A DNA stretch of 64,000 bases from Candidatus Woesearchaeota archaeon (GCA_021734865.1 JAIPIC010000001.1:4166-68165); one strand, 5' to 3'; counted from the first letter of the stretch, positions 2,152 through 53,200 are shown. Translations and numbers: made by a program. The notes: generated from the letters alone by a model not told the origin.

Positions 2152-2338
2152 CTTATAGCAAAAATTAATGGCTCAGGATTGGGAAAATACTAAATGAGCT
2201 GATAATAGGATTATTTAGGATTATTCTTCATGATTATTTTTTAGCCTACAAGTTTAAATATTTAACAATAGTCTTATATATCACCAGAGATTTAATATTT
2301 ACTGTACTTTCAGAATTTACTAAAAATAATAAAATATA

Positions 2339-3515: not shown

Positions 3516-3519
3516 TAAT

Positions 3520-4794: not shown

Positions 4795-4818
4795 GGAAGA
4801 ATAACTCTTCCTTTTTTT
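4795..4818 (+). terminator. hairpin ggaagaATAACTcttcc followed by T7 tract between the surface-protein gene and the first permease (possible intra-operon attenuator)
   Basis: Read directly from the sequence: a 5-bp stem, then a T-run, 4 nt before the ATG at 4822. Confidence 0.3.
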
Positions 4819-4821
4819 AAT

Positions 4822-6045: not shown

Positions 6046-6057
6046 AAGGTCCATAAA

Positions 6058-7272
6058 ATGATGCAATATGATGAGATGAAATATTCGATAAAGAACATCT
6101 GGAGTCGGAAGACTAGAAGTTTTCTTACTTCTCTGTCTATCCTTATCGGTGTTATGTCTGTATTTGTAATTGTCAGTTTTGGTCTTGGACTCAACTATTA
6201 TGTTGACACGATAGCGGCTGAGGCTGGAGTTGACAAGCTGTATGTACAAGCAGCAGGCATAGGTGCTCCTGGAACTGACGATACATTTGCAATAACTGCA
6301 ACAGATATCAGTTTCATCAGTAAGATTAAGGGCGTAAACGAGTTTGCAGGAATGTACCTGAATATCGGGAAGATGGAGTCTGGGAATGATAAGCTATTTG
6401 CTTTCGTTGCCGGATTTGATATGGACAAGCAGGACTTCATCGATGAAGTGTTTACTGTTTCAGTCGAAAAAGGTAGAAATCTCAAGAGTGGAGAAGTAGG
6501 AAAGGTTATGCTCGGGTATAACTATCAGGTCAAGGACAAAGCTTTCAGCAAACCAGTAAAGCTGGGGGACAAGATTGATATTAATGATATGCCATTTGAG
6601 GTTGTTGGTTTCTATGAAGAAGTAGGCAATCCATCTGACGATGTGAATGTTTATATGACAGACAAGGCGTTTGAACTGCTTTTTCCAGATCACAAGGATA
6701 ATTATGGATATGTGATGTTGCAGGCCGATAAGAACGAGAATGTATCCGAACTGGCTGACAAGATTAGTGAGAAATTCAGAAAATTCCGTGGAGAAGAAGA
6801 AGGCAAGGAGACATTCCATGTGCAGACTTTCGAGGATGCTCTTGCTGTGTTCTCTTCTGTTACAAATATCATCGTGATAGTACTCGCATTGATCGCTGCC
6901 ATATCAATCTTTGTGGCAACCGTTAATATCATGAATACCATGTATACTGCAGTTCTTGAGAGAACAAAAGAGATTGGTACTATGAAAGCGGTTGGTGCAA
7001 GAAATAGCGAAATCATGTTCATGTTCATCTTTGAATCTGGTGTTATTGGCTTAATTGGCGGAATCATCGGAGTGATCTTTGGTTATCTGATCGCATCTGC
7101 AGGAGGAAGCCTTCTTGCACAACTGGGCTATTCAATGTTTGCACCAATCTTTCCATGGCAGTTGTATGCTGCATGTATAACTTTTGCATCTGTTATCGGA
7201 GCAGCAGCAGGTGTGCTTCCTGCGATGCAGGCTGCAAACCAAAAACCTGTCGACGCATTGAGATATGAATAA
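6058..7272 (+). CDS. ABC transporter permease, FtsX/MacB-type (second copy)
   Basis: Same architecture as the preceding gene (RTKEIGTMKAVGARN; three C-terminal TMs). It is a paralogous pair typical of MacB-like heterodimeric permeases. Confidence 0.85.
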   Translation: MMQYDEMKYSIKNIWSRKTRSFLTSLSILIGVMSVFVIVSFGLGLNYYVDTIAAEAGVDKLYVQAAGIGAPGTDDTFAITATDISFISKIKGVNEFAGMYLNIGKMESGNDKLFAFVAGFDMDKQDFIDEVFTVSVEKGRNLKSGEVGKVMLGYNYQVKDKAFSKPVKLGDKIDINDMPFEVVGFYEEVGNPSDDVNVYMTDKAFELLFPDHKDNYGYVMLQADKNENVSELADKISEKFRKFRGEEEGKETFHVQTFEDALAVFSSVTNIIVIVLALIAAISIFVATVNIMNTMYTAVLERTKEIGTMKAVGARNSEIMFMFIFESGVIGLIGGIIGVIFGYLIASAGGSLLAQLGYSMFAPIFPWQLYAACITFASVIGAAAGVLPAMQAANQKPVDALRYE

Positions 7273-11053: not shown

Positions 11054-11227
11054 ATGGTTAGAGTTGTAGTAAATAATGGGCAATACAAACTTACGATCCC
11101 TAAGGATCTAGCTAATTCTAAAAGGTGGACCAAAGGAACCAAGCTTCGATTTGTAGAAGATCTCGACGGGCGAGTTTTCATTGTCGAACTCGAAGGAACA
11201 GAAAAGGTAAATGATGAACTGGAATAA
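11054..11227 (+). CDS. AbrB/MazE/SpoVT-family swapped-hairpin DNA-binding protein (57 aa). Not in the ORF track.
   Basis: Manual translation gives MVRVVVNNGQYKLTIPKDLANSKRWTKGTKLRFVEDLDGRVFIVELEGTEKVNDELE, which fits the looped-hinge-helix pattern (x-IPK-x-R...G..L.....DG.h.I). The stop at 11225-11227 overlaps the giant ORF start (11211) by 17 nt. Confidence 0.55.
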   Translation: MVRVVVNNGQYKLTIPKDLANSKRWTKGTKLRFVEDLDGRVFIVELEGTEKVNDELE

Positions 11228-29200: not shown

Positions 29201-32200
29201 GGCCAACTATTCTCAATTTGCAACAAATCTTCAAGATGATATAAACAATTTGGACACAGAGAATTGGCCTCACGCCTGGGCAAGCAATTTTGAATCTGAT
29301 GCTCATAATGGCAGTGGAGTAATCAATGGCATAACTGATATGCCAACTGCTTGGCAAACTGATGAGACTGATCTATCAGATGTATATTTAGATATCAATT
29401 TTAGCCGGACAAGGCACTTATTCAAGATAGGGTTAAATCCATCCTATTATTCTACCAGTAAGAACACAGCTCAGATGGACAATTTCACAGTCGAAATAGG
29501 AGAAGATGAATATACTTTCTCTGTGGAAAATGTATCTGACTGGAACTATTATCAAATTAACCCTACCGAGACAGATTATGTGAGAATAAAGAATATTGGA
29601 AAGAATGATTCATCTATGGGAGCTGGAATCAGAGAGATCCAATTGTTTGAAAAATATGGAAACGTGAAGATGCAGGTTAGGAGTAGCAGTAGCAATGCAA
29701 CTCTGCAAACTCTTGATTTTGTAGGTCCAGATGGCACTACTGACACATATTTTACAAGACCAGGTCAGGAAATAAACGAATCTCATGACTCAGACAGATA
29801 TATCCAGACTAAAGTATACCTAAATACAACTAACACTTCATTCTCACCTATTGTATCGGATATAGAGATCAGCATGAGCAATATTACAACTGAGACGCAT
29901 AGGGGAGAAAACTGGACTAATTATATTTTCAATTTTACTCTACAATCCTATTCCAATTCATCAGCCTTTTTTAGGTACATTAATGAAACAGATTATTACA
30001 GTATCGATTTTGATTACAACAACAATGAGGTTGTGTTATACAAAACATTAGAGGGTTCAAGATCAAAACTAAATAATGCAAGTGTAACGGTTGATGATAC
30101 TTTAAGGAAGGTTTCTATCGAAGTGGATAATTCTTCTATTACAGATTTTGAGATCCAGATAACATATTCTGGTTCAGTCATAATTGAGAGCAATGATACC
30201 AGTATTAATAGAGGTAAGGTAGGATTCTTAGTCGTCAACAATACGCAGACCTCATTTGACGACATTGAGGTTACAACATTCAACAAAGAAGGTGAAATGG
30301 TTGAGACAGACTATTTTGGGAATGCTGTCTATCAATGGGATACTATTGGATACTCTGAGGGTAACCATCTAATTGAATGTAATATTACTGACGATCGTGA
30401 CAACTATTACATAGCTGATGAAAGCCAATTTTATACTAATAAGATGGTGGTTCTCCCTACAGATCTTATTCTTTCAGCGTATTATATAGCAAATGACCAA
30501 TCTGGTTATATGGATACAGACATTGTCTACCGGGATCAGAATCCACATTGGGAGGAACCTTGGAATATATCTCTTGGGGTGAATGTAAGTATTGCCGGTG
30601 CTGCTGGAATCCAACCAATTGACAATGTTACTGCACATTTCAATATTTTTGACAATAGTCTAAACCTTGTTGAGACAATCAACTGCACCACCAATATAAC
30701 CAAATATAACGAAAGGCAATATGATAATGATTATAATTGGTTTGACAATTATATTTGTGATACCCTTTTTAATCCAGGAGATAATTTTGAGGTAGGAAAA
30801 CATTTCATCATCTTAAATGCTACAAAACCTGATTCAGAAGGATGGAGTACAAATATTGTCAATGAGACAATTTACATATATGGCATGTTAAATATTACAA
30901 TAAACGAATCGTTTGAAAACAAGACCTACTATTCACATCTAAATTATACTTTCAATTATACAGTTACAGATGATAGGGGTCAATTCATTGATCATCCAAA
31001 TGTTGAAGTCAGGTTTTATCAAGAAAGAGGGGATACTGCAACATGTGTTGATGAACTGATTGGAGAAGCAAATGACAGCGGTGAAGTGGAATGGGCATTA
31101 TCAGATTGGCAGAGAGACAACAGGACATTATTCAGTGCCAGGGATTGGCATGTGTATGCCATAGCTCAAGCACTATACTATGTAGCAGACGATATCACAA
31201 CAGTATATAATGCTGAGAATAGTGATTGTGAAGACCAACGTTACAGATATCACTGGGGAAATATAAATATTACTTTGGTGCATATTGTCAATGTATCGAT
31301 AGACAAACCTACTGAATCTGTAGCACTAATGAATACTACGACAGGAATGGTCAATTTCACATGTATGCTTTTCCGGGATTTTGACAATATGAATGTCGAT
31401 GAAGGATATGATGTTTATTTTAGATGTGATAGCTGTAATCAATCTGAAAACTATAATTGGAGAAGTACACTGACCAATTATAATGGAGAGGCAAAATTTG
31501 CTTTGAATTTCTCACAAGAAATACTTGATATACCATACAACTTTACATGTCGTTTTGAAAATACAACATTCTTACAATCTGATAATGCAACCCACACCAG
31601 AACCTATATCGTTTCTGATTATATCGGTACTGGTGAAGGAACATGCTTAGATGATGGCTATTGCAATACTTCAGCCATGTTTGGAGGTGGAGGTGGAGGA
31701 GAAAACTGTCAGCTCTGTCCAAAAGAATGTGATATGGATGTATGGATGACTAATAATACAGATTATTATAAAGGTGGTTATGTCAATAACCAATATCATT
31801 TTGAACCTGCACTAAACTGGAGTACTCAAAACGAATCTGAAGATCTTGGGGAACTCAATACGAGTGATTGGGCTAACCTCACTATTGATCTTGATGATGA
31901 TGGCATTCTAAACGATAGATCACGTATTTTCAATGATACTCATTTAGTTTTAAATATGTCCAACTCATCAGTCTACTTCGTTGGTCTTGGTGTAAATGTA
32001 TCAAATGTTTCTGAGGGAACTGGTTTCACATTAATAAATGTCTCACAGGCATCAATTGGAGATATTGGTAACATTACAATTGTAGGTGAAATATTTGAAG
32101 ATAATGTGATCTGGGATAACATAACTGTGCTTGTCCAGACTGGTTCAATTATATGGACAAACCAAAATGGCATTTCAAATTCTCAAGAATATTATGGATC

Positions 32201-35200
32201 AAGAATATACCCAATATCAATAGCAAACGCATGTGGTTGTAATTATGATGGGGTATGTAATGGTGCTTACGAAACGACCACAAGCTGTCCTGAAGATTGC
32301 GAAACTGTTGATTTGAATAGAACACCAGATTTTATGAATAATCAATCAACAAAATACTTTGTGCATGTTGGCGAAAATGTTAATATCACTGTCAATGTAC
32401 GTGATCAAGATGAGAATCTTCATTATGTCTGGCTTTACAATAACATTTCTGACACCAATACGACAATGTTCCAAGAAGGTACTGGTACCTGTGAGGATTG
32501 GTGTACTTTTTATCTAAATAATGTAAACATTGGCGAAGATACATTGTTTACTTTTTATGCAAATGATACTAGTGGGAATCTTAATGGCGACACGATTGTT
32601 TCTGTAAAGATTGATGAGATCTACCCTCAGATATGGAATTTGATTCTTGAAGAGGGAGATAATGTCACAAGACACGATGCAAGTGTGAATTTCACAGTGG
32701 AAGTCAATGAACCTAATGTTCTAAATGTAACTCTAAATGGAAGTCTAATGTCAAATGCAACCGGAATATATAAAATTCAGATAGAACCATCAGCTTTAGG
32801 GTGTACTTCAGGAGAAAATAACCCCTGCACATTAATGGCAGAGGTATATGATGGTGCTTGGAACTATAATTCTACACCTTACACTTTTTACATTGATACT
32901 GTAGATCCTTTAATATGGAACTTTACCCATAGTTTCACTTATGACAATACCACAACGTCTGGTTTAATAAATCATTATTATGTGCATGCTACGGATGTAA
33001 ATATTAGAAATGTAAGCATCAATGGTACACAGATGTATCAAAATGTGAGTGATAATGAAGTCTGGTGGATCAATGAGTCTGTTATTAGTTTTGGTTGCAA
33101 TGTCAGTGGAGTAAACAACTGCACACTTGTAGCAACTGCAGAAGATTATGCTGGTAATAGTATTGATTCAGATGAGGTAATAATCTCAGTGAATAACAAC
33201 GCACCTCAAATAGTAAATTTTTCAACCAATCTTACAATAAATGTGTCAAACATGTACGATCTGATCAACTTTTCAGTATGGGCAAATGAAACAAGCCTAA
33301 AAAACGTGACAGTATCAGGGATTAATATGAGTCAGGTAGGTCAAAGTACTATATTCAACCTTGAGATTTCGCCTTATGATTTGGGTTGCACTGTGGAAGG
33401 ATTATGTACATTAACAGCCATTGCTTATGAATCAATAAATGAAAACTCCAATTCAACAGAGTTTAATTTGACTATTGATAATACTCCTCCAGCAATTACT
33501 GACTATAATGTCAATGATAGTATTGTTAAAGCAGGTATACCAATCACTATTTGGGCAAATGCAGTAGATGATTATATGGATGATTTTTGGATTCAGAACG
33601 GGACTGGTTTTGATCCGGCATCATTGGCTGAACACTCAAACTTAGGAAATGAATTATATATTGCTATTTGGAAAAACAACACAGTACCATTTGGTAACAA
33701 ATCAGCCAATACTTCCCTGTACTTTAGGACTGGAACCAATGATAGCACATATACAGTCACTGGAAGATTTAAAATTTACAATGCATATATCGATTTGTAT
33801 AATGAGATTAGCATTGATGGAGGGGATTCATATTCAAAAATAAGCAACAATGAAGTTTCCTTCAGCTCAACATTCGAATCTGGAAGTGATACTGATGGTT
33901 TTGATATCACCCTTAATGCTCATAAAAATGCTGCATTCCTTGTTAATCTGACATCGCCTAGTGGATATCATCTTGTCACGTACTTTGGTGCTGGCTCAGT
34001 AAGGAATCAGACTGTGCCCTATGCTTATGCTAATGGAATCTATGATGGCAGTTACAATGATATTATTTGTTTTGGTTCCAAATCTGAGACAAATTATTCA
34101 TGCACTTATGAAATCAGCAAGAATACCACCCTTTACTTTTATGGCAATGATTCTGCTCGGAACACTAACGACACGAATACTATCTTTGTTGAAGTTGACG
34201 ATACAGTACCAGTAATTACTTCCAACCTGATTTCTAATGCTTCAGAAAATCAGTCAACAACACTCGCGGTTCTGAATTTTAGTGTTGGTGGTGTTGACAA
34301 TAATATTTGGTATGTTTCTCTTAATGACTCTGTAAACATGACAAATACTTATGGTGATCAATTTGAAGCCATAACTACAGCTGGCAATCTTGGGTGCGGA
34401 GAGGACGGCGCTTGCATAATTGGTGCAAGATTCATTGATGAAGCTGATCATGAGAATACTTCTGAATATGTACTGATCAGTGATTTGACACCTCCTGAAG
34501 TCACAAACATGGAGGTGAACGATTCGACAATCCGATCGGGAGCTTCAGTCAATATAACTGTAAACATTACAGATTATCTTTCATTCGATGGATACGTATA
34601 TAATTCAAGCAATCAACAAGAATGCACTCTAAGTCAAATTGAAGGAGATATTTACTCTTGTGTATTTACAGTACTTGCAACTGACACTTTCTATGTCAAT
34701 GCGACTGATGCACTTGACAATACAAACGACGATGCAAATATAACAGTGTATGTTGATGAGACTCCACCAACCCCTGTTAGGGTATTCATTAATGATAGTG
34801 ATAATATAACAGGAATACTCTATGATTACAGTTTCTTGTTTGAGGTTACAGATATTGACGGAGCTGAGCCAGACTATGTTGCAGAAGCAGTTATCAATGG
34901 TACACAATTATCAAAAATATCAGACTATATCTGGGGAACAAATACTTCTCCCAGCACATTTGGTTGCTCTGCAGGCGATAATGTCACCTGTATAATCAAT
35001 GCAACTGGAACTGATTACGCACAGCTTTCCAACTATAAGACATTTGAATTCACTATTGATAGCTGGGCACCATATATTATTGATGAAAACATTAACATAA
35101 CCAGCGAAGCATACAGATCTGATAGGGATGTCTTGTTCTGGGCAAATGTGACTGACTCAAATTTGTTTAATGTATCTTTTGGTGGTAGAACAGCAACTGA

Positions 35201-38200
35201 AACTGTAACTAACAACTTCACATATGTCAATACTTTGGCTGTACTTGGTTGCAGTGCTGGTGGTGAAGATGTAAACTGTCAAGTAACATTAAGAGCTACA
35301 GACAAAGGAGAAAATGCAAATACTTCAACATACAATATTAAAATAGATGATAGGGCTCCTAGACTCAATATATTTTATTTGAATGATTCGGTTGTCCAGA
35401 GTTATCAAAATGTAACTTTCAACGCACAGGTTGATGATATTTATTTGGATTTGGTATGGATCGAAACAGATGGTAGTCCAGTTGGTTTCATGGAGAATAT
35501 AAGCAGTAATGATTTTGAGTATACTCTGAATGTATCAGAGAATAAAACTTATACACTTAATGCAAATGACACAAACAACAATCTAAACTTCAGTCTCACT
35601 GCTCCAGTATATATTGATGATTTACCTCCTAATCCGATTAGGTTCTACTCGAATGATACAAATAATCTGACATCTCATACAAATCCATTACTATTCTATG
35701 TGAATGCTGATGATATTGATGGCATCACTCCAGACTTTGCAAAGGACGTGTATATCAACGGTACAATTATGGGTCACGAAGGAGGTACTTACAATTATAC
35801 TTTAGCCTCAACCCCAAATGATTTAGGATGTACGTCTTCTGCAGATCAGACCTGCCTTTTGAGAGCAACCGTAGTTGATGAAGCAGACAACACAGATTAC
35901 ATAGATTATTCAATTGTTTTAGACGCGAGTCCGCCTAGAATATGGCTTTTTGACTCCAATGATACAGATGATGTTGCAAGATCAGACAAGATTCTCAATT
36001 TTAGTGTCAATGCAGATGACATTACGTTGATTAATGTCACTGCAAACCAACAGGAATTTACTCAGCTTGGTTCTACCGTAGTATTCCAGTACATTGGTAG
36101 TCCGCTAACACTGGGATGTCCACCTGGCCCAGATGAATCTTGTACAATTACAGTTAGAGCAGATGATTTAGCTGAAAACACAAACAGCACTAACTACACT
36201 CTAATTATTGATGATAATAGTCCGTCTGTTTCTCTTTTTACGGCAAATGACACTATCGTACAGAGCGGCATCAGTGTAAATTTAACTATTAATGTCTCTG
36301 ATCCAAACATTTACGATTTTGATATATATAATGAATCTTTGCAACTTGCCTGTACCCTAGACAGAAAGATAAGTGGAGAGACTTCATACTGCATTGTAAC
36401 ATATTATGAACAGCACAATTTCACAGTCAATGCTTCAGATAGAGCTGATAATGTAAACAATAGTGAAACTCTTGCAATATATATTGATGATACTCCCCCA
36501 GTTGTAAATTACTTTGTTTCAAGCCAAGGTGACAATGTTAGCCAGCCAAGCCAATATGTCAACTTCACAGTTTTAGTTACTGATGTTGATGATGTGCCGA
36601 CGCAATATGCAGAATCAGTAAATATAAATGGAACGCCAATGACTAGAAGCCAGAATCCCAATCTCTGGTATTTGTATACACGACCCATGGACATAAATTG
36701 TCCTGGTGAAGCTTCAACATATGACTGCATACTTATGGCCAATGCTTCCGATGAAGCAGGAAATATTGACACAGAGATATATGTCATAACAATAGACCAA
36801 AATAATCCAAACATTCAAAATCTCACATCAAATGCAACAAATGATCTGGCGAGACTTTCATCTGTGTTGAACTTCAGCGTTTTATCGCAGGATGATAATC
36901 TAATGAATGTGACAATAAATGGTTCATATATGAGTAGAGTTGCTGACAGTGACTATTATTACAACATTACAACTCCTGCAGATCTCGGTTGCGGTTCAGG
37001 GAATAATCAACCTTGTATACTTGTTTCAAGAGCCGTTGATATGGCACTAAATACAAATGAAACGACATATATTATTTACATAGATGAGATAGCACCACAA
37101 GTGACTTTTATAACTGCAAATGATACAATTGTTAAGAATTCAATCTCTGTGAATATTAGTGTAGATGTTACTGATCCTAACTTAGAACTTGTATGGGCAA
37201 TGAACGAAACTGAAATAATTTGTTCAAACATGGTAGAAACTGATACAGATCAATATTCATGCGTATTCTTAACTTCTGATGATACTCAAAATATTACGAT
37301 CTATGCAAATGACAGTGTAGGAAATTTAAATGATTCAGTCCTTATAGAAATTGTTGTTGATACATTACAACCACATCTTCACAGTTTTGAAACAAACGAT
37401 TCTGACAGTATTGTTAGTATGGAGCAGCCTATAAATTTTACAATATATATGAATGATACATACGCAAAGAGTATCAAACTTAATGGTTCAGATATGAACC
37501 AAATCGGCGATTCATACTACTATGATATTGTGAAGACACCAAATGAGCTAGGATGCACGTCTGGAGATGGAGTTGATTGCATTATTGGAGTAATCTCTGA
37601 GGATGAAGCTGGAAACACCAATACATCTGAACTAATAATATCAGTAGATTCTATTAGTCCTTTGATTTCACCAATCATTATCAATGACAGTGATAATGTA
37701 AGTAATAATGGTGTAGATATCAATTTCACTGTCCATGTAGATGACAGCTATGTAAATTATGTCAGATTGAACGGTAGCGACATGATTCAGGATCAGGTAG
37801 ACACGACATTATTTTATCTAACCACCACACCGCTGGCTTTAGGTTGTACCATGACTTCAAATGTAAATTGTACCGTAGCTGTGACTGCAACTGATCTTGC
37901 AGATAATTATAATGTCACCGATTATATTATTGAGATTGACAATGTTAATCCAGTAAACAACTGGGCAAGATCAAACGATACTGATAATATTTCAAAGCTA
38001 TACTCTGAGATTAACTTTACGATAAACACAACTGACAAGTACATGTCTTTTGTCAGCATTAACGGCACAAACATGATTCAAACTGAAGACCCATATATTT
38101 GGTATTTTAATGGAACGCCAGATGAGTTATCATGTACCGGCGGCCCTAGTACTGTCTGTTTATTAGGGATGGAATCTGTGGACCAAGGAGGTAACAGAGA

Positions 38201-41200
38201 GGTTAGTATTTACAATCTAATAATTGATACAATTGCACCATTAGTGTTGGATTATAACTCAAACGACACTGTCATAAAATCCGAGACTTTTGTCAACATA
38301 AGTGTAGCAGTATCTGATGCGCATATTGACGATGTGTGGATCAAAAATGTCTCAGGAGACACTGCCTGTCAAATGCAACATATTGCAGGTAATGATTATG
38401 CATGTATTGTTTCAGTACCTGTCACTCAAAATCTAACAATTTTGGCTAATGATTCTGTAAATAATATCAATGATTCCAATGATATTACAATCTATATTGA
38501 TGATACTCAACCCGTTTTGAATAATTTTACATCAATTAAGGCAGATAATATTCTTAATTCAAGCAGATACTATAATTTCACTGTGAATATTACGGATATA
38601 GATGGAGTATTCACTGATTATGCTCAGTTTGCAATAATTAATGATAGTCATTACATGATGAATACGTCCAACCCACAAATATTACATTATTATGGTAGAC
38701 CGATTGACATGGGATGCACAAGCAGTGCTAATGGTACCTGCATACTCAGAGTCAAAGGCATCGATGAGGCTGGCAATGAAAATACTATAGACCAAAATTT
38801 CACAATTGATGACGTTGAACCATCAATTGATAATGTAACATTAAATGATACTGTAATACAAGCTGGGATATTCATTAATATAAGTGCTATCGTGTCCGAT
38901 CCACACCTTGATAGTGTTTGGGCATATAATGGAAGCACAAAAATATGTACAATGACTAAACTGGGTTCAACAGATCTATACCAGTGCCAAGTTTCGTTAA
39001 CTTCAAACACAGGAATTTATGTTTATGCAAACGATTCTGCGCAGAATATGAACTCATCAACTGAGACAGAAGTGTATGTTGATGGTACAAATCCCTTGAT
39101 ATTAAGCATAATAAGTGATACTATTGAGAATATTACAAATAGTCTAACATCAGTTATTTATGAAGTCAACAGTAGCGATGTTGATTCTGCTTGGCCAGAT
39201 TATGTTAATGCAGTTTCGATAAATGGCTCAGATCTAAGCCAGACTGGTCCTGAAATACATTGGGAGATTACTTCAACACCAGCAGACCTTGGCTGCGGAA
39301 GTGGAGAGAATATTTCCTGTATTTTGGAAGCATTATCAACTGATGAAGCTGGTCTCTCATCAACACAAGAATTCACACTGGTTATTGATGATTATTCGCC
39401 AGGTATCTATGCTTTCATTTCAAATGATAGTGATAATGTATCAAGACTCGATCAGGAGTTGAATATAACTGTAACAATTACAGATATGAATCCGTTTAAT
39501 TATACACTTAATGGAAGTCAACTCACGTATCACGGCTCCGATAATTATGGGTTACTGATAACACCAGAAATCAAAGGGTGCACAGGAGGTGAAAATTCAT
39601 CGTGCATATTATCCATTAATGCGGCTGATAAAGCACATAACACCAATCAAAGCTTCTATGTTATGCAAATCGATACGGTCAGTCCAAGGGTTAATGATTT
39701 ATTTGTAAATGCAACTCTCAATATTACTAAGTCTGATGTAGATATTAATTTCACAGTAAATGCGAGCGATGTTCATATCCTAAATGTAAGCTTAAATGGA
39801 ACAACAATGGAGTTAATTGGTGATAATATATTTGATGTTGTTCTACAAGCTGACCAACTAGGGTGCAGTAGTGGTGATAATATTGAATGTATTATCTCAG
39901 TAACAGCCATCGACAAGGCAGATAATATTAATACAACTGAACATATTATCACAATTGATGATGCGAATCCAGAGATTAACTCCATATATACTAACACATT
40001 AGACAATATTACAAAGTTTAATTCCAGTATCAATTTTACATTCAATGTATATGACAGTTATATACAGGATGTAAGATTGAACGGCAGCAGCCTGGAAAGA
40101 ATTGAACAGACCAATGATTGGTGGATTAACAGAACTGCACAGGAATTAGGATGTGCAAATGGAGAAAACAGTTCCTGCCTTCTCCAAGGATATGCTGTTG
40201 ATGTTGCAGGCAATTTCATTACTCAAGATTTCTCGATAATTGTGGACAACAGATCTCCTCAAGTCAGTTCATTAATAATTAATGATTCTGATAACATCAC
40301 AAGAAGCAACGTAATTATTAATTTTTCAGTCTATTCAAGTGATACAAATATCTTCAATGTTTCTTTGAACAATACACAGATGCAGAGGATTGGTAACTCT
40401 GATTATTATGATCTGCAAAGTGCACCATCCACTTTAGGATGTTCTTCTGGAGATGATGAAAACTGCACACTTCAAGCATTTTCTCTTGATTATGCAGGAA
40501 ATGAGAATACGACCAGTCTGAATATTGTGATTGATGATGTTAACCCATATGTAATAAATTTTACTGTAAATGATAGTGTAGTAAATACAAATTCTGGAAT
40601 CAACTTCACGGTAAATATAACCGATCCAAATATCAAAGAAGCATGGGTACAGAATGAAAGCAACCAAGTCTGCTTATTGACTGAATATTCGGCTGACTAT
40701 TATACCTGTGAGATCAACTCGGTTGACACAGAGACATATACTGTGTATGCAAAAGATTATGCTGATAATATTAACAATACCCAACAACTGATTGTGTATG
40801 TGGATAGTATAAAACCTGAGATGTCTGATTTCAATGTGAATCTTTCTGCTAATATATCAAAAAGCAGAAACATACTTAATTTTTCAGTCAGTGCAAGCGA
40901 CATAGACGGTACAGGGCTTGATAATGTCATCAATGTTACTATCAATGGAACAAGCGCAACACAGGTTGGTTCAAGTAATATATGGTATCTTGTAGCAACT
41001 CCTGAAAGTCTGGGATGCGGAAGCGCTCAAAATTATTCCTGCTTGCTAACTGCTAGGGGAATTGATGAAGCTGACAATTTTGAGTATATCAATTTCAGCC
41101 TGATTATTGATGATAAGACACCTAGTATCGATAATATTTGGATGAACATTACATACAATATATCTACAAGTTGGAATGTAATCAATTTTACAGTCAATGT

Positions 41201-44200
41201 TACAGATCCAAACATGAAGAACAGCACACTTAATGGAAATCTCATGAATTGGGTTGACAATGGTGACTTGTGGACATATTCTGCTACACCTTCCAGCTTA
41301 AATTGTTCTTCAGGAGAGAATGAATACTGCAATATAATCTTAGAGGTATATGATTTCACAGATAATAAGAACACAACAGACATAACTATTTTCATTGATG
41401 ATGTTGCTCCTGCACTTAATCAATTAATATCAAATGATAGCGATAATGTTTCAAGAAGTGATGTCGTTCTTAACTTTACGATTAATTCATCAGATCAAAA
41501 TCTTCTCAATGTTACATTAAATGGAACAGAGATGATTCAAGATGGCAATAGATTTTACTTAAGCTCAACACCATCAGATCTGAATTGTGGAAGTGGATAT
41601 AATGTTCCATGCATACTTGGTGTAACTGCAGTCGATAAAGCATTCAATATTAATGTTTCAGAATATGTTCTTAATATTGATGACTATCCATCTAGAGTCA
41701 CTAATGTTGGCCTCGATGATGATATTGTCCAAAGCAATACTCAGGTGTATCTAACGACTGATATTATTGATGAGAATCTTCGTTTCAATTACGTATTCAA
41801 TGGGTCAATCAATATATGCAATATGACATTATTTTCAGGAAATACATACAACTGTTCTTTCCTATCTTCTGGGTCATCTCATAATTACACAGTTATATCA
41901 TACGATTATGCAAATAATGTTAATGACACTGTGAATTTCACAACTTATGTAGATGATAAAGAGCCAAGTGTGTTGTCATTTGGCTCAAATGACACAGATA
42001 ATATTGTAAAAAGTAGTTTTATTGTCAATCTTTCTGTTAATGCTTCAGACAGGGATGCGACACAATCAGATATGGTGGATAACGTCACAATAGGAGGGCA
42101 GAATTTAACAAATCTTGAACCAGGAGATGTTTGGTATATTGTTACAACACCATTGACAGTCGGATGCGGTTCTGGTGACAACCTCAGCTGTGAGCTTTAT
42201 GCAGTAGCACTGGATGATGCAGGCAATCAAAATATGACAAATTATACATTAGTTATAGATGATGCTGATCCTGTTGTTGTTTATTTCAACTCAAACGACA
42301 CTGATTATGTGACCCGCTTGAATTCAATCCACAATTTGACAATAAAGATGACTGATTCAAATCCGGATTATGTTATGTTAAATACTACTGTGATGAATAC
42401 TACTCAAGATAATACTATATGGTATAGTGTTATGAATGCTTCTGTTGCTGGATGCCCTCAATCTGGTGAGAATGTCTCCTGCACAGTAAATAGTTATTCG
42501 TATGATATCTTAGGCAATATGAAGATTGAAACTATTGATTTCATAATTGATGAAGTAAATCCAAATATATCTGCAATAAATGTGAATGATAGTGACCTAA
42601 TTGTCAGGAATGACCGGCCCCTAAACTTTTCACTGCTATCAAGCGATGCAAACATAAATAATGTGAATATTAACGGAACGGAGTTGACAAATACTCAGGA
42701 TGTGCTTTGGGAAACTTCTACAGATCTTGATTCGTTTGGTTGCACGCTTTCAGATAACAGGACATGCACGATTATAGCTACAACATATGATAAGGCAGGG
42801 AATACAAACAGTTCAGAGATTACAATGATTGTTGACAATTTGCTCCCAAGTGTTGACACACTGTACAGTTCAGATATTGACAATGTCACTAGAACTAATG
42901 TTTCAATAACTTATTTTGTTAATGTAACTGAACATAATATCCAAAATGTTACATTAAATGGAACTGAGATGAGTGTTCAGGGGAATGGGGTTACTTATGA
43001 AGTCACCGCCACACCTGCTGATATAGGATGTGAATCAGGTGTTAATTATAATTGTACTTTAGTCGTAACAGCCCAAGACAAGGCAGGCAACATGAATTCA
43101 TCCACTTATTTTCTCACTATCAAAGATGCTATTCCAGGAGTAGAAGATTTTATGATAAACAAGACGGTCAACATTTCAAGAAGCAACAGCATATTAAATT
43201 TCAGTGTAAAAATAATAAGTGATAATATTGATAACGTTACAATAAATGACAGTACTTTAATGAATCCTATTCCTGGTTCAGAAAGGTATAATCTTGTCAC
43301 AACCCCAGCAGACTTAAATTGTCCTGAAGGAACAGAACAATATTGCATATTAAGAGTCAGTGCAATTGATTTTGCTTCAAATGGTAATTACACCGAGATG
43401 TCCATATTCATTGATGATGTCAAACCAACAATAAATAACATTGAAGCAAATGATACAATTGTAAATTCGTTTGTTGATGTCAATATTTCAATAAGTGCTT
43501 TGGATATAACTATCAATACAACCTGGATAAATAATAATTCCGGAATTGAATGCATTGCTGACTATCATGGTTCAAATATCTATTCATGCGTATTCCCTGT
43601 AGTGGAAACACAGAATTATACAATATATGTAAATGACACTGCATCAAATGTTCAGGCACAAAACATTACTATTTATGTTGATGATAAGGCACCGTATGTT
43701 ACTAGTTATTACAGCAATGCATCTAACAATGTAAGTAGATCAGATGTTGAAGTAAGATATACTGTTGAGGCAGAGGACATCGATGATGCACCAACTCATG
43801 AAATCGAATTTGGAGATATTAATGGAACACAATTAGATAATCATTCAGACAATTACACTTGGTACATTATAGCATCTCCTTCAGATCTTGGTTGTTCGGC
43901 TGGGAATAATACCACTTGCGTTCTAACTTCAAGTGTGACCGACGCTGCAAATAATATCAATACTTCAAATTATTCAATCATAATAGATGATTACGATCCT
44001 GCTGTTTTCGATCTATTCTCTAACGATACAGACAATATCAGCCGAGATTCAACAGTTGTAAATATATCTGTGTCAGTGCTCGATCCGAACTTCAAAGAGG
44101 TAAGAATAAATGGATCTCTCATGAGTCTCGCTGGTTTCCCAGGTAATTTCAGTTTAACAAGTTCATTATCTGGTCTGGGATGTAATTATTCAATTAGCAA

Positions 44201-47200
44201 CCTTTGTGTGATAGCAGCAACCGCATATGATTATGCTGGCAATCATGAATCGGTTGAGATGAGTATAGCCCTTGATAATACAAACCCCATTATACTATAT
44301 CCTGATAGTAATGCTAGTTATAATATCACAAGAAGTGATATCGACATAAATATTTCTGTTAATGTAACCGATGCAAATCTAAGGTCTGTATATGTAGAAG
44401 GAAACTTGATGTCAAGAATTGGATTGTCAGACATATTTGAGTATACTGCAAATGCAAGTTATCTTGGATGTACTAGTGGTACCAATGAAACCTGTTCATT
44501 AGAAATAACAGCATATGATGAAGCAGACAATTCTGAGACAATCCCATTCAGTATTATTATTGATGATGTAAATCCTGATGCATTCAATCTCAATGTCAGT
44601 GATAATATAAGTCAGTCTAATACGACCATTATATTCTATGCAAATATATCGGATGCAAACATTGAGACAGTAATCATGGAAAATATAAGTACTACTGCAT
44701 GTGTAATGAACCTGGTTGATAGTCTGTTCCAGTGTGAGATCAATACAACCATAACACAGAATTATACTCTAAAAGTTTTGGACAAGGCTGATAATCTTAA
44801 TGATTCCTTGATGATTTCAGTATATGTTGATGACAATGAACCAGAAATACTAACGCTTATATCTAATGATACTGATAACGTCTCTCGACATGATATCTCA
44901 CTAAATATCAGCGTGAACGCCTCTGATTTTGATGGTATACCATATGATGAAGTCCAAGCGGTATACCTTAACCAATCTGTACCTTTGACTCAGTTAGGTA
45001 ATACTTCAATTTGGTCAGTCCAGACTATGTTAAGCGACTTGAATTGTGATACTGGAAAATCAGAAATATGTTTGGTTACTGCAACTGCATATGATTTTGC
45101 AGATAATACAAATACTACCGATTATTATATTACAGTTGATACTTATACGCCAAATATATACAGATTGGTATCCAATGATACTGATAATATATCACGAAGT
45201 GATATTTCAATCAATATTAGTGTAAATGTAATAGAAGAAAATATCAGATCTGTTGTCCTGAATGAATCAGTTATGGACCATGGCCAAGGAGAAACGTGGT
45301 ACTACTCAACAACACTATTTGATGTATGTGATGATGAAAATGGGAGTAACTTAACATGTGTACTTCGTGCAACAGGCATTGATCTTGCAGATAATTCAAA
45401 TTTCTCTGATTATATTATTACGATTGATGATGAGTTCCCATATCTCTATAATAGTTTCATCAATCTGACAAAAAATGTGACCAATTTAAACAAGGACATC
45501 AATATAAGTATATATGTTGATGAAAGTCATCCTAAGAACATTTCAGTAGATTACATATCTGCGGTTCAAAATTATCAAAATCCTGCTTCAAATGAGACCT
45601 TGTATTCTGTAATTCTTTCACCATCTGATTTAGGTTGTATTTCTGGAGCAAATGAATTGTGCATCCTAAACTATACTGCCTTAGACTATGCAGATAATTT
45701 AGCATATAATGAAATAAATTTGTACATAGATGATGAAACACCAAATGCTATAGAATTCAATTCAAATGATACAATAGTCCGATCAAATACTACAATTATG
45801 CTTTATGCAAATGTCACAGATGATAATCTGGAGAATATTTGGACTACTAATATGACCGGTCTTGAATATGAAAGATACTGTGATATGAGTCATTGGTATG
45901 GACAGAGATACAGGTGCTATTACATTATCAACTCCACTTCTGAGTTCTGGTTGTATGCAAATGATAGTGCAGAAAATTTCAACAATAATCTTAACATTAC
46001 AGTTATCGTTGATGACGGATTCCCAGGTGTTGACAATTTATCTATAAATGATTCAGACAATATTATTGTCAGTTCACAGATAATTAATTTTACTGTAGAA
46101 GTCTCAGATCCGTATGTTGCTTCAGTGGATATAAATGGTACTCAGATGTCATTAAGTGCTGAACTGAGTCTTTATGAAATTGTAACTGACGCTCAAAGTC
46201 TGGGTTGTCCAACAGATGTGTATGCACCTTGCTATCTTCGTGCAAATATTTATGATGAAGCAGGCAACTACAATTTTACCGACCTGAATATAACTATTAA
46301 TGATATTGCACCTAAAATATCCTTCATCATATCAAATGACTCGGATAATATAAGCAGGTCAGATGTGGAGGTCAATTTCACAGCTGAGATCAATGGATCT
46401 GAAATAAAATTCGTAAATTTGAATGGATCAAATATGACTGAAAATAGTGAAAACAGTTACTCACTCAATATTAGTCCAAGTAGCTTAGGATGTCAGGCTG
46501 GAAGGAATGAACCCTGTCTGCTGATTGGTGTCGTAGAGAGTTATTCTGATTTACAAGGTACAAATAATTATACAATAATAATTGATGAAGGGATACCTTA
46601 CACTTATTTATTTAATGCGAACAAATCCGTAATAAAAACAGGTAACGAGATTAATTTCACTGCAAATGCGTCTGATGAACACCTAGAAAATGTCACAGTT
46701 GTTAATAGTACTGGTGATCTGGTATGTCTAATGGATACCTTGTTAGAGAATGAGTTCTTTACTTGTACTGTAAGTATCAATGCTAATGATACACTCACTA
46801 TGGTAGCCCTTGACAAGGCTTCAAATAGTGAGGATTCCAGGACTGTAGACATATTTATTGATGACTTGTTGCCAAATATAGATTCCATTTCAACTAATAG
46901 CAGCAGATTGAACAATCACACCAAGTCAGACGAGATTCTGAGGATTATAATCGATGCTAGTGATTTAGATGGAATTGGATCAGATCATATAACAAAAGCT
47001 AATTATACAACAATATCTGATAGTGGTCCATTCACAAGAATAGGTGTAACCTCTTCCTGGTATATGGATAGAAATATCTCTGATTTTGGGTGTTCGACGG
47101 GCGCGAACGAATCATGTATAATTGAAATCAGTGTATTTGATGAAGCAGGCAATTCTCTCGTTCAGAACCATTCATTCATAATTGATGATGTTATTCCATC

Positions 47201-50200
47201 AGTTTATTCTTTAGAAAAGAATAACACAAATGCTGTAGTGATGAGCCTTGAACCAATTAATTTCACAGTAAACGCATCTGATTTAAATATTTATGAAGTT
47301 ATCATAAATAATGTAAGCGCTACCTATATAGGAGATAATATTTGGTCATTGACAACAAATGCTTCTAATCTTTCATGTACAAGTGGAGATAACATCAGTT
47401 GTCAGGTCAGAGCAGATGTATATGATTTTGCTGGTAATGTAAATTCAACAAATATATCTATAGTAATTGATGACATGGCACCAGCAATTAACTGGTTCAT
47501 TATTAATAGAAGTAATAATATATCCCGTAGTGATGTATTAGTCAATATATCAGCAAATATCTCAGAAAATAATTTGTATTCAGTAACTGTTAATGGTAGC
47601 TTATTGAGTCAGCTTGCTGATTCTGATATATACTTCAACCTTTCAAATTTAAGCACATATGGGTGCTCCGGTGGTAAAAATACTCCTTGTATACTTGGAT
47701 TATCTGCAGAAGATATCAGTGGCAACCTAAACACTTCCGAATTGATTGTATATATTGATGACTATCTGCCTCTGATTCCAGTAGCTAATGAACACGGACT
47801 AATTTCCAATGTGTCTACGAACATCACTAGAAGTGACAAAGTCATAAATTTCTCAGTAAATAGTTATGATGAAAATTTTAGATATGTTACTTTGAATGGG
47901 ACACTTATGGAACTGGGAGCAGGAAATATAAGTCATGTGAATCGCACTGTCCAGCAATTATGCGGTGCCTATGATGTAGAGAATGAAACATGTATATTCA
48001 CAGCTTTTGCGTACGATTATGCTGATAATGTCAATTCTTCGACTTATAACATTGTCGTTGATGATATTCCCCCGACTGTCGAATCTTTTGACTTTAACGA
48101 TAGTGACAATACAACAAGAAGCGATATAATGCATAACTTCACTGTGTACGTTACAGATCCATTCCTAGTCAATGTTACTATTAATGACACAGAGATGGAA
48201 AGAATCGGTGAAACAGATTATTGGCAATATATAGGAACTCCAGGAAACTTAAGCTGTAGTAGTGGGACAAATGTTATCTGCCTACTTCGCTCCACTGGAA
48301 CTGATATTGCTGGTAATGAAAATTATATTGATATGGAACTCAAGATTGATGAGGGACATGTTAATATTACTGATTTAGATGTTAATGTCACACGAAAACT
48401 CGATTGGAGTCAGCCAATCATGAAAGTTAATTCAACTGTCAATTTCACAGTATTAGTAAATGATGATAATATAGTTAATGTCACTTTAAATGGTACAGAG
48501 ATGAATCAGGTTGGAGATTCATTTATGTACAGTTTAGTGACTACACCGTATGCAATGAACTGCCAGACAGGTGCAAACAATAATTGCTCGTTCCAAGCTT
48601 ACGCCATAGATGCAGCAGGGAATAATAATGTAACTGATCTAATAATAACCATTGATGATGTTCCTCCAGTTGTACTAAGGGCATATTCAAATGACAGCGA
48701 CAACTACTCGCGAAGCGATGTTGATGTAAATTTCAGCGGAATTGCAGATGACCCATATATGTATAATCTCACAGTAAGGGTCAATGGTATGGATCTTGTT
48801 AATGACAGCTGGCATTACGTAGCAAAACCAGTGGATTTAGGATGTCCTATTGGTGTTGAGACCACATGTGATGTGTGGTTTGAAGCCTTTGATATTGCTG
48901 GCAATAATATGTCCAAGCTCTATATTATTAATGTTGATGATGTTCCTCCAACCGTTACAGATCTTACGGCCACCAATGCTCAGGAGGGAAGCCAAGAGAC
49001 AGGATATTTACCAGTTGTCAGTCCGCTTGAGAACACATCCTGGGCTGTGACAGCTTCAGATACAAACACATTTACATTGAATTTCTCAATGAATAATGGA
49101 ACTGAACATGGTAACGGAACTTGGGACTTCATGACATATTCAGGAAGTGGGAACATATATTCACTCACAATGAATGTCATAGATTATCTTGCCAAATCAA
49201 ATAAATCATATGAGTTTGTTGTTGTTGGTGAAGATTATGCTGGAAATAAAGCAAACTCAACTGAATATGTTTATATCGCAGAATCTCAACCGAGCGTCCA
49301 GAATGTTACAGTCGATAAGGTGTTTGTTGAGACAAACTATGAAAATGTAACGCTCAATTTCAGTGTTCAGAGTTATGTGCAGGTCATAAATGTTACAATT
49401 AATTTCAGCAATTCTGGAAATGAGGAATTTTTAACAGATAATCTTGGAGCAAGATCAGGCAATTTCAGTTATAATTTCTCACCTAAGAAAACAGGATATT
49501 ACAATGTGACAATAAGAGTAGTAAATCTTGCTGATTCAGTTGGGACGTCTATCAATGAGGAATTGTTCTTTGCTTCTGGAAGCACAACAGGTGTGATACT
49601 TTCTACTGTTGATGAGTGTAATATTTGCAGTGAGAACAATCTAACCTTTGACAATATATCAAGGGATTCTCCTGGCACACTTGTACTGAATATGACGTTC
49701 AATAATACTGGACGGTCACCTATGTACGGTACTGACTTGGATTCACCTATCACAGGACCAACTGTATCTTTCAATCTTCCAACGGGTATCTCAATTAATG
49801 CATCTAATGATAAAATCCAGTGTGATGTCATTGCTCCAAATACATCATGTAATTTTTCAATTAATGTGACAATCAATGTATCAGCAAAGGTTGGTATAAA
49901 ACAGATTATGGCTATTGGCTCGTGGAGCAATTCAGATTATTCACCAGGGTCTGTTACAAACGAAGATGCAGAACTTACACTTAATGAGTTCAAGGAACTG
50001 GAAATTCTTGAAGAAAGTCTATCGCATAACAGGGTTTTCTATGGGAGGAACTTCACAATAGGCAATTTCAGTCTGGCGTCTTATGGTAATATTGCCCTTC
50101 ATGATGTTAATATATCAGTAATCAGTGGTAATCTCAGTTCAGATAATGTAACGCTCAATTCATATTATATCCAACAGTTGAATATCTCTCCTGATGCAGT

Positions 50201-53200
50201 TATCCCAATTAATGTATCTGTATATAATACAGGAATTTTCAGATCATATGTATTTGCTAATGCAACTAACGAAGTGTGCCTAGATCCTACATTATGTATT
50301 GATACAATGCCTTTTGATATTACGGTGTTCAAAGAATTGTCTGTCGAACATTATCAACCAGTAAATGGGCGGATAATGAGACAAAGTGGTGAAAATGGTC
50401 TGCTAAAAATATACTGTCAGGTATCACATACGTATGATGGAGAGCAAATTGATGAGACATATAATGTTAAACTTATCGATAATGCAACATCCAATGAGAC
50501 AATATACTGGGATGAGACAGGCCCAACAGTATTTGGAAAGGTTGCAAGATTTGACTATGATATGACACAAGAAGAAGTGGGCCCGCATAACTTTTCTTGT
50601 ATAATTTACGACAATCTCAGCATGTATTACCTTGTTAATCAGGAACTTAATATTTCAAGTACTCAGGCAGATTTAGTTGGTGTGATTAACCACACGATAA
50701 ATAGAACACTCAATTCAGATGCAGTGTATTGGTCAGATAACCATGAGAAAAATACTACAGCTCTCAGAATGGACATATTTGATGAATTTGGTGAACCAAT
50801 CCAAGGTGCCAGCATTTTATTCAAATCAAATGCTACTCCGACCGGAGCTTATAACACTATTGGTTCTTGCATCACGGAATCTGGAGGAAATTGTACATTC
50901 ATATGGAATCCAGATGTGATTAAGCAAGATACATACACAATCAATTATACAATATATAAAAGTGAATATTATGAACCCAGAAACGTAAATGGATCAATCA
51001 ATATAACGGTTTATGGACATTTAAATATCAGTATTATTGATTCAGGGAACACAATAATTTACAGAGATAACAATCATAGTGAGGGTTCACCAACAAATAC
51101 CACGATTGTCATTCAAGTGAACGAAACGAATGTTCCTATTGAAAATGGAATGGTGTACTTCTATTATCAGAACACGACACAAGAGATTGGTGTCTGCACC
51201 ACGAATGCTTCAGGTATGTGTCAATTCTATTGGGATCCTAATTCAACTATCAATCCTGGAACAGTAAATATTTCCATGGTAGCAGTAAGTCCGCTTTATA
51301 CTAACTCATCCATGAAAAATATCGAGATTGACATATGGGCACACAATAAAATTGAATGGTTGGAACCAGATCAAAATATACTTTTGAATGATTCAATACC
51401 AATGTCATTGTACTATTTCAATCTAAGTGTTGGCGTGCGATGGAGTCAGAATAACGAATACATATCTAATTATGATTTCCCATTGGAAATGTATAGGCTT
51501 GAACCGTACTCGTTCCAAAATGATGTCGTATTCAACAATAGTCCTGTTATTAATGAACAGGAAATTGATTGGTCTTTCAGTGAAGTTTATGGAAGTGTCA
51601 CAGATATGGATGATGGCTCAATGAACATTACAACTTCTGAACTACTTTTCAAGGTCAGATCTGAATATCTGACAGAGGCTCTTACTGGTTATGATATAAT
51701 CAGAGTAAATATCAGTGAAATTGTGACCAATATGGATTGGGGTCTTGAAATATATAATGGAACTAACTGGGTACAAATAATTGATTATAACCAAAATAAT
51801 TCATATGATGTCAATATATCCAATAAGAACATTCAAGGTATTGGAATAATTGCTAGGTCGCTAAATAGTCTTGAAAAAACTATGACTGTAGAAAATATTA
51901 CCTTAATAAATAATGTATATACAAAGATTACTCCAATAGGGGCTGAATACATTGTTAATGAGAATGACACAGCATCAAATTCAGCTGGTGATATGGAAAA
52001 TCTGGGACAATTAATACCAAAGAGTGTCAATCATGGATGGTATAGCTCAGAGAATATTGAGGCAAAAAGGAATGATAATTACACATACACATATGCAGAT
52101 AATTTTTCTATGTTGATCAATCTTACTGGATTTGTACCTGCTGAAACTGGTTATGTTGCTTGGCACTACAATTATTCACTTATCAATGCATATAATGTAT
52201 CTGATTATGAAAAGATTGGCTTATCATTGTATATCCCTGCAAATTCATCTTACATGACACATAGTCTGTCTTTAGGAGATGACAATGCTCCAAATCCAAA
52301 TTATGCAACATATACTTTATTGGGAGAAGAAGGTTGGAATAATTTCATGGTAAATCTGTCTTATTTTACGGATAGAGGTGTTGATATTTCTGCGATAAGG
52401 TTCATAAATATCTCATTTACAAATGATGACACTGGAATTGAAGAATATCAAGGTAATTATTACCTTGACCAAGTCATATTCATAAAGAACATAACTTCTG
52501 TCAATGGGGTTCCAACAACTCCATGGAAACTACCTGAAGCAGGATATTATAAATTCTATGCGCGGCTACCGTACAAAAATTACTTCAATTCGTCGGTCAG
52601 AGAAGTGTATCAGACAGTCAATTTTGAAAGCAAGGAAGGGGGAGATCAAGGAGAAACTCAAGACAATCAATCTTCAGAATTTGATCTGGCTGGACTAATA
52701 TCAGGAGCAGAAGTTACATCATTTGAGGTTTGGCCTATTAATCAAAGATTAATTATTCCTGAAAACAGCACGGGCTTTCTTTACAACCTGAGCATCTACA
52801 GTGTTACAAACCTAAACCTCACATTAAATCTCAGTGCACCTCATGAGATTCTGTACCTGAATAATGCAACTAATGATGAGTACTACTTAACATTAATGCC
52901 TGGACAGTTAATTGAGATACCAATATATTTCAACACATCTAACAAGACAGAAGCTTACGACAGTCCAACAAGAGAAAACATCATTATCACCTCAGATGAC
53001 ACTAAGGAAGTAGTTATTTCTGAAGAGGAATTAAATCTTAGGAACGTATTTGGCAAAATTATAACTCCAAATTCAGTTCAGACTACATCAGCAATAGAAA
53101 AAGAGGATATCATTAATGTACGTATGAATTTAAGCTATGATGGAAGTTCATCACTTGAAGACACTCAAAATATCTCATTTGATTTACTTGTCGCTGATCT

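Follow-up and report, generated by a model that had tools for sequence, protein, structure and literature searches.

Giant surface proteins and Ig-like extenders

The leading candidates for host attachment and exploitation by DPANN archaea are giant surface proteins, known so far mainly from Nanohaloarchaeota. The nanohaloarchaeal proteins combine a signal peptide, laminin G (LamG) domains, immunoglobulin-like (Ig-like) domains (~75 in SVXNc_0300), a transmembrane helix, a VirB4/TraG-like ATPase and a coiled coil; their genes are directly followed by another gene for an ATPase (PMC10266531). A role in host attachment or exchange has been proposed for SPEARE and giant surface proteins (PMC10266531, PMC6642349). 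SVXNc_0300, with 9,409 amino acids (aa), is the largest such protein cited in cultivated archaea (PMC10266531), the SPEARE protein of Ca. Nha. antarcticus has 5,998 aa, and archaeal proteins of more than 10,000 aa are reported to be rare. Here we analyze a 64,000-nt stretch of DNA from Candidatus Woesearchaeota archaeon (GCA_021734865.1 JAIPIC010000001.1:4166-68165; hereafter the window, with positions counted from its first nucleotide), in which a preliminary description had pointed out a long array of Ig-like domains. With a probability of roughly 0.7, we read this array as the stalk (extender) of a giant membrane-anchored DPANN (Woesearchaeota) surface protein.

Another described system to which the array can be compared is SiiE of Salmonella enterica (PDB 2yn3/2yn5). 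In this rod-like extender, 53 BIg domains span 175 nm, and removal of Ca2+ leads to kinks. D43, D97 (of the motif D97-x-A-G-N101) and D117 of SiiE form the Ca2+ site at the domain interfaces (PMC5466336, PMC6272769).

A giant protein of SPEARE-like architecture

The array region lies inside one open reading frame (ORF) at 11211..58640 (+), which encodes 15,809 aa without an internal stop, according to the ORF list and its translation. The G+C content of the window is ~35%, and at such a composition an open frame of 47 kb (47,430 nt) cannot be a product of chance. A hydropathy scan detected only two transmembrane-like segments in the giant protein: an N-terminal hydrophobic segment (aa 16-40; 11256..11330, +), which we interpret as a signal peptide or anchor, and a C-terminal transmembrane helix (aa 15417-15437; 57459..57521, +). 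Beyond this helix, a predicted cytoplasmic HerA/VirB4-like P-loop ATPase with a coiled-coil tail (57528..58637, +) matches DUF87 in Pfam (E=4.9e-12) as well as HerA_C and TrwB. The ectodomain has Pfam matches to Laminin_G_3 (three times, E down to 4e-40), to Big_1/Invasin_D3-like domains and to NHL. The NHL repeats (53898-55310, aa ~14230-14700; Pfam E=7e-25) are located between the Ig array and the membrane anchor, and they probably form a beta-propeller.

The distribution of potential N-glycosylation sites is consistent with this topology. Between the two transmembrane segments (15,366 aa; window 11343-57440), we counted 920 N-x-S/T sequons, compared with 321 +/- 16 in shuffled sequences, while the 370-aa cytoplasmic tail contains a single sequon, so that the density falls from 6.0 to 0.27 per 100 aa across the C-terminal helix. 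The composition of the ectodomain is also unusual, with Asn accounting for 11.6% of the residues and Lys plus Arg for only 4.3%.

Overall, translation, Pfam matches and the published architectures (PMC10266531, PMC6642349) identify the ORF product as a SPEARE-like membrane-anchored surface protein: LamG domains and a tandem Ig-like array are followed by a C-terminal transmembrane helix and a VirB4/HerA-like ATPase, and another ATPase gene lies downstream. The same Ig-repeat family is present in the nanohaloarchaeal giant proteins P0141 and P0166, and homologous giant proteins have both N-terminal and C-terminal parts in common with the window protein. By contrast, the window protein belongs to another DPANN lineage, the Woesearchaeota, carries other distal modules, and is ~1.7 times longer than the largest nanohaloarchaeal protein cited. 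With it, these surface proteins gain a member from the Woesearchaeota that is exceptionally long (15,809 aa versus 9,409 aa).

Extent and conservation of the array

Using an iterative hidden Markov model (HMM) built from the copies themselves, we delimited 57 contiguous Ig-like domains at aa 7042-12696 (32334..49298, +); the HMM gave 58 matches, one domain being split by an insertion. The preliminary description had counted about 55 consecutive domains of ~100 aa between 32600 and 48950, and 55 of the 57 domains fall within that interval, with a base period of 96 aa in a residue-level autocorrelation (aa 7130-12580). The HMM found no further convincing copies elsewhere in the giant protein. 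A common core and linker had also been described, and the alignment of 55 copies bears this out: within the pattern ...D-x-A-G-N...I-D-D-x-x-P, the D, N, D and P are each conserved in at least 90% of the copies. Outside such positions the copies are strongly diverged, with identity within a subtype of ~33% (range 18-48%), and Tandem Repeats Finder detected no DNA tandem repeat of ~288 or ~870 nt. Sequons are dense in the array as well, at ~6.7 per 100 aa, and each domain has ~5-7 conserved sequons.

Relationship of the array domains to SiiE

The assignment of the domains to known families was less straightforward. When the 55 copies were scanned singly against Pfam, none matched HYR (PF02494), He_PIG (PF05345), Big_9 (PF17963) or Cadherin at E<=1, which does not bear out the family membership that had been suggested, and no Pfam family matched a 4,000-aa chunk consisting of repeats only (E<=0.01). 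The sole Big_9 match in the giant protein, at aa 170-244, is sub-threshold (E=0.008) and far from the array. Big_13 (PF19077) and Big_7 each gave sub-threshold matches to 6 of the 55 copies (E<=1); for Big_13, the listed copy scored 14.9 bits against a gathering cutoff of 27, and the best E-value was 0.005. In NCBIfam, one of the 55 copies had a marginal Ca_tandemer match (E=0.03). Nearer homologues from other archaea pass the Big_13 cutoff at 40-82 bits (P0128, P0132 and P0159 at 60-82 bits), and we read the array repeat as a divergent relative of Big_13. When the repeat profile was searched exhaustively with HMMER, 18,145 proteins matched at E<=0.001, of which 596 reached E<=1e-30; no matches came from a word-indexed search of proteins with this profile. 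Ten top homologues were looked up, and the named ones are from Woesearchaeota, Nanoarchaeota and Nanohaloarchaeota.

Structure prediction gave a clearer picture. The AlphaFold2 (AF2) model of a triplet comprising one domain of each of the three subtypes described below (B-A'-A, aa 8343-8631), for which the alignment was built from sliding three-domain windows, consists of three all-beta domains (pLDDT 90.7, pTM 0.74). In a Foldseek search with this model, the top PDB match was SiiE BIg50-52 (2yn3_C, E=4.4e-11), with a template-modelling (TM) score of 0.45 over three domains, followed by extracellular cadherin (EC) arrays of protocadherin (EC1-4), the Bacteroides glycan-binding protein SGBP-B and RTX-adhesin tandem repeats. 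The beta-sandwich likeness noted in the preliminary description thus stands at the level of the fold, an Ig-like all-beta domain whose structural neighbours are tandem Ig and cadherin extenders, but not for the HYR and Cadherin families themselves. By this model, the array domains are SiiE-type Ig-like beta-sandwiches.

Sequence comparison points to the same protein. SiiE is the sole significant match of the repeat profile in PDB sequences (E=6.8e-5), and the alignment is anchored by S-D-S-D-N, the Asp ending beta strand B, D-x-A-G-N and a terminal V-D. The columns that match D43, D97-x-A-G-N101 and D117 of SiiE are 75-100% conserved in all three subtypes alike, so that the SiiE-type combination of D-x-A-G-N with interface aspartates is recognizable in the aligned copies. 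We infer from this conservation that the array probably binds Ca2+ and that its rigidity is probably Ca2+-dependent. The array is therefore linked to SiiE-type BIg domains by fold and, independently, by sequence, which provides a testable idea for how a DPANN Ig-like stalk could be stiffened.

The likeness to SiiE includes the dimensions and the arrangement of the domains (57 here and 53 BIg domains in SiiE, Ig-like and ~95-100 aa long, in one tandem array), the D-x-A-G-N motif, the three Asp residues of the type I Ca2+ site between domains, and the proposed rod-like extender role. Unlike SiiE, the giant protein is archaeal, with an N-terminal signal and a C-terminal transmembrane anchor fused to an ATPase, and it has dense sequons and conserved Cys pairs; sequence identity between the two is only ~15-18%, and an order of subtypes such as that in the array is not reported for SiiE. 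The array can also be compared with extenders of RTX proteins secreted by type I secretion systems (T1SS), such as MpIBP region II and the Aeromonas and Marinobacter tetra-repeats (PDB 5irb, 6xi1, 6xi3), and with the EC arrays of cadherins and protocadherins, which likewise consist of tandem beta-sandwiches and in which acidic Ca2+-binding linkers stiffen the chain; each of these was among the Foldseek matches of the triplet model. However, superposition of the whole triplet on these structures is poor (TM scores of 0.2-0.37), the array has no Cadherin match in Pfam, and the repeats of MpIBP are near-identical, whereas the copies in the window are ~33% identical and fall into three classes.

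Domain subtypes

Three subtypes had been proposed, and they were recovered as 14 copies of B, 10 of A' and 32 of A, in addition to one divergent terminal domain (X). The B class split off by hierarchical clustering of all-versus-all alignment scores, and A' was separated by aligning the remaining copies. A' is an A domain with an exact 6-residue insertion in the D-x-D-G-x-x-x-D region, following the conserved Asp that ends beta strand B; the insertion has the pattern D(100%)-G-x-x-x-D(80%). A and A' have a Cys pair in common (L-G-C-x-S-G-x-N-x-x-C), while B has a different Cys pair and its own set of sequons. Many of the motifs that mark the subtypes (N-V-T, N-G-T/S, N-Y-T and N-x-N-x-S) are conserved N-glycosylation sequons. 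All array domains are on the plus strand. The B copies start at nt 32334, 33501, 34503, 35373, 36237, 37104, 38247, 38835, 40554, 41703, 43437, 44583, 45750 and 46608, and the A' copies at nt 34782, 35643, 36513, 38526, 39108, 40830, 41979, 43707, 44856 and 46893. Domain 13 (36237..36512) and domain 14 (36513..36821) may serve as examples of B and A', respectively.

Domain 5 is a B-type domain of 241 aa (33501..34223, +), in which the B-type HMM matches only the two flanks of an insertion of ~145 aa (~33624-34055), in agreement with the ~150-aa insertion that had been noticed near 33480-34200. The insertion is unique among the array copies and is located in the loop preceding the first Cys. 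No similarity to it was found elsewhere in the giant protein or in 150 homologues, and the AF2 model of domain 5 is of low confidence (pLDDT 63 overall, 30-65 in the insert).

Domain order and the A'-after-B rule

With A' written as a, the order of the domains is BAAABA BaA BaA BaA BAAA Ba BaAAAA BaAA BaAAAA BaAA BaAA BAA BaAAAAAA X. The three A copies with which the array had been thought to open are domains 2-4; they are preceded by domain 1, a B copy (32334-32639) that falls slightly outside the region first described. Successive B's are spaced by 4, 2, 3, 3, 3, 4, 2, 6, 4, 6, 4, 4 and 3 domains, between them lie anywhere from 0 to 6 A domains, with A' counted apart, and the last eight domains contain no B (one A', six copies of A, and X). 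B-A'-A occurs nine times, with extra A's trailing in six of the nine. The only consecutive perfect triplets are the three B-A'-A units of domains 7-15 (34503..37103, +), after which a fourth B follows at 37104-37385.

This order does not agree with the fixed cycle of three domains, with a period of ~870 nt repeated ~18 times, that had been claimed in the preliminary description. A stronger signal at about 290 aa had been suggested as a check, and it is present in part: in the residue autocorrelation, the offset of 288 aa is surpassed only by 96 aa and exceeds 192 aa, but offsets of 384, 575 and 959 aa have similar strength. At the level of whole domains, lag-3 similarity across the array is not significant (z=1.06 versus permutation), and lags 4, 6, 10 and 12 are higher. 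Within domains 7-16, lag-3 similarity is 0.26, compared with 0.13 for lag 1 and 0.11 for lag 2; because lag 3 is strong only inside these domains, the 288-aa peak is local in origin. Super-repeats of fixed length are known from the A-band of titin, where units of 7 and 11 Ig/Fn3 domains are matched to a partner lattice. The array resembles titin as a long series of ~100-aa beta-sandwiches with a rule for the order of classes, but its unit varies from 2 to 6 domains without a constant period, and it is not a titin-like super-repeat.

What is regular is the position of A'. Each of the 10 A' copies comes immediately after a B, and for all of them to occupy post-B slots the hypergeometric P is 5.2e-7. 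We found no trace of en-bloc duplication of triplets: in Mantel tests, the similarity among B copies was not correlated with that among the neighboring A' or A copies (r = 0.03, -0.10 and 0.05). Similarity between A-type copies declines slightly with their distance along the array (Spearman rho = -0.17, P=1.6e-4). A- and B-like domains interleave in the 150 best homologues too, with B-to-B spacings of 1, 2 and once 5, but never 3. The adjacency of B and A' was seen in only 2 of these 150 homologues, one of them a fragment from another Woesearchaeota genome, and the B-A'-A(n) syntax was not seen in the nanohaloarchaeal proteins, which have BAB- or BB-type spacing. Because block duplication has left no trace and the homologues never show a spacing of 3, the three-domain unit is not an ancient conserved module; the observation that the subtypes are diverged (~33% identity) and yet maintained remains valid.

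Proposed role of the array and alternative explanations

In the arrangement that we propose, the giant protein would be exported via its N-terminal signal, held in the membrane by its single C-terminal helix, and would end in the cytoplasmic HerA/VirB4-like ATPase. The 57 SiiE-like domains would make up a rod roughly 190 nm long (scaled from SiiE), coated with glycans and probably stiffened by Ca2+; such a rod is proposed because the junction aspartates and D-x-A-G-N are kept at each junction and because each domain has ~5-7 sequons. It might project the distal ~7,000 aa, with LamG and further binding modules, far enough out from a very small cell to reach a host. The rod would be built from two classes of domains, A and B, with the B's scattered every 2-6 domains. 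Standard Ig topology would place the A' insertion loop at the pole facing the preceding domain, so that where A' follows B, its two extra acidic residues would face the B domain. The B-A' pair is thus probably a co-adapted special junction with its own chemistry and not part of a periodic three-domain unit. Apart from this one interesting local rule, that A' occurs only after B, the array appears to be an ordinary extender.

Several points weigh against this reading. No single copy of the repeat reaches the threshold of any Pfam or NCBIfam model, and Ca2+ binding at the junctions is predicted from the conservation of motifs. The biology of SiiE is different, as SiiE is a bacterial protein that is secreted by a T1SS with its C-terminus first and is only transiently retained; the giant protein does not look like a T1SS substrate, having instead an N-terminal hydrophobic signal, a C-terminal transmembrane helix and a cytoplasmic ATPase. 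The expression of the giant protein, its glycosylation and its contact with a host are likewise predictions from sequence. Moreover, it may be that A' follows B because this order was inherited through duplication, and not because the interface requires it.

This last possibility leads to the main rival of the co-adapted junction, namely that the A/A'/B pattern is a fossil of the growth of the array, in which an ancestral B-A'(-A) block was copied, single A's were then duplicated locally, and the pattern has no present structural meaning. The slightly greater likeness of nearby A copies (rho = -0.17, P=1.6e-4) and the variable number of A's after B-A' would fit such local duplications, and A and B interleave in the homologues, but in other patterns. 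However, the Mantel tests detect no block history, and the 6-residue insertion is kept in 10 of 10 A' copies (Asp 100% and 80%) at an identity of ~33%, which is near saturation; because it has been retained in all copies despite such divergence, selection appears to act on it. We therefore consider a pure growth fossil improbable, if worth keeping in mind, and a history of duplication and an interface constraint are not mutually exclusive. Much less probable is an ancient three-domain unit (A', A and B in fixed order, ~870 nt, ~18 copies) maintained as a rigid helical spacer of defined pitch, the functional unit envisaged in the preliminary description. The 288-aa offset, second in the autocorrelation and ahead of 192 aa, the three perfect B-A'-A triplets of domains 7-15 and the nine occurrences of B-A'-A in all speak for it. 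They are outweighed by the B spacing of 2-6 with 0 to 6 A's in between, the closing run of eight non-B domains, the whole-array lag-3 signal (z=1.06) that stays below lags 4, 6, 10 and 12, the lack of congruent similarity between adjacent domains (r = 0.03, -0.10, 0.05) and the homologues, where B's are never spaced by 3. As a description of the whole array, we regard the three-domain unit as already refuted.

It is also conceivable, but in our view unlikely, that the array itself is adhesive, making many weak lectin-like contacts to glycans of the host envelope, with the B's and the domain 5 insert as specialized binding sites. The BIg domains of SiiE have been proposed to bind glycans via many weak interactions (PMC5466336), the nanohaloarchaeal study proposes binding via Ig-like domains (PMC10266531), and the 145-aa insert in domain 5 is unique. 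On the other hand, Pfam scans revealed no lectin or carbohydrate-binding module signature in the array, the predicted N-glycan coat (~6.7 sequons per 100 aa) would mask much of its surface, and the binding-type modules, LamG and NHL, lie outside the array. Finally, the contig is metagenome-derived and searches of protein collections did not recover the giant protein itself, as might be expected if repeats had been mis-assembled or if an open frame had arisen by chance and did not encode one protein. Yet 47,430 nt remain open at 35% G+C, there are no near-identical DNA repeats to collapse or chimerize, the folded domains, coherent topology and sequon asymmetry fit one protein, and homologous giant proteins match at both their N-terminal and C-terminal parts; the probability of such an artefact seems negligible.

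The ATPase module and the downstream paralogue

DUF87/HerA-like proteins of Woesearchaeota, Aenigmarchaeota and Nanohaloarchaeota share 50-65% identity with the ATPase of the giant protein; for the nanohaloarchaeal ones, among them a protein from Nanohaloarchaea archaeon SG9, the figure is 50-53%. All of these homologues are from DPANN archaea, and in related genomes they often form the C-terminus of proteins of 2,200-3,800+ aa. The gene downstream of the giant ORF (58637..60736, +) encodes a paralogue of 699 aa with a signal, a short ectodomain, a transmembrane helix and an ATPase of the same type (Pfam DUF87). An NCBI protein carrying the label Candidatus Woesearchaeota archaeon has the identical sequence, and the paralogue shares 61% identity with the last 673 aa of the giant protein. 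Its similarity to the giant protein is very uneven. The two ATPase modules are 84-100% identical in protein sequence (58170-58470 versus 60270-60570), and one stretch of ~100 codons is 94-97% identical in DNA, with 90-94% identity at third codon positions, whereas the ectodomain stubs are only 20-28% identical. Such a pattern suggests that gene conversion has recently acted on the ATPase modules, and this may in turn point to co-assembly of the two.

A more far-reaching picture can be drawn from these observations, which we offer as speculation that is rather unlikely to hold in full. The B-A' pairs might be co-evolved junctions, each an extra Ca2+ site, hinge or docking point, at irregular but selected positions, giving the ~190-nm rod mechanical or binding "stations." The ATPases of the giant protein and of its gene-converted paralogue might assemble into a mixed ring in the membrane through which ATP hydrolysis is coupled to the stalk, and the whole could act as a device for DPANN-host contact or transfer.

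Other repeat modules of the giant protein and neighboring genes

A second repeat system occupies the window at 17838-27020 (aa ~2210-5270), with at least about 10 copies of a ~200-215-aa unit that are 30-50% identical. Three of these units contain an inserted LamG domain (aa ~2560-2790, 3650-3861 and 4088-4284), and the spacing of the copies by roughly 200 aa or more suggests a multi-domain unit. The protein also has three irregularly placed copies of an acidic D-L-D-D-D module (e.g., TIDLDDDTYANDTVYVYNDTHILINLSDGSDYFIDLGADISEAN), which belong to no assigned family, are 32-46% identical and are located on the plus strand at 25617-26186, 27555-27779 and 31752-32162 (aa 4803-4992, 5449-5523 and 6848-6984).

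Cys-containing modules are repeated in two runs at 13743-15992 (aa ~845-1594), with identities of 27-35%. Those at aa 845-1204 have C-I-G-C or C-V-G-C motifs, those at aa 1201-1594 have E-V-N-C-S...C-x-x-C, and none of the modules at aa ~845-1594 has a Pfam match. In addition, short Cys-rich motifs resembling C-G-N-N-x-C-E-x-G-E-N-x-x-N-C-P-x-D-C are present just 5' of the array (32211-32330), at 31640-31730 (near aa 6812-6840) and in the membrane-proximal stubs of both the giant protein (56590-56770) and the paralogue (aa 48-67 of the latter).

Downstream of the paralogue, an ORF of 696 aa (60733-62823) has neither a Pfam match nor similarity to the ATPases; it is probably co-transcribed with the paralogue because it overlaps the stop of that gene by 4 nt. 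No tRNA or Rfam features were detected in the window. Upstream of the giant gene, an operon-like cluster at 2339-7272 (+) encodes a MarR-type regulator, an ABC ATPase, a CARDB-domain protein whose C-terminal tail is hydrophobic, and two MacB/FtsX-type permeases.

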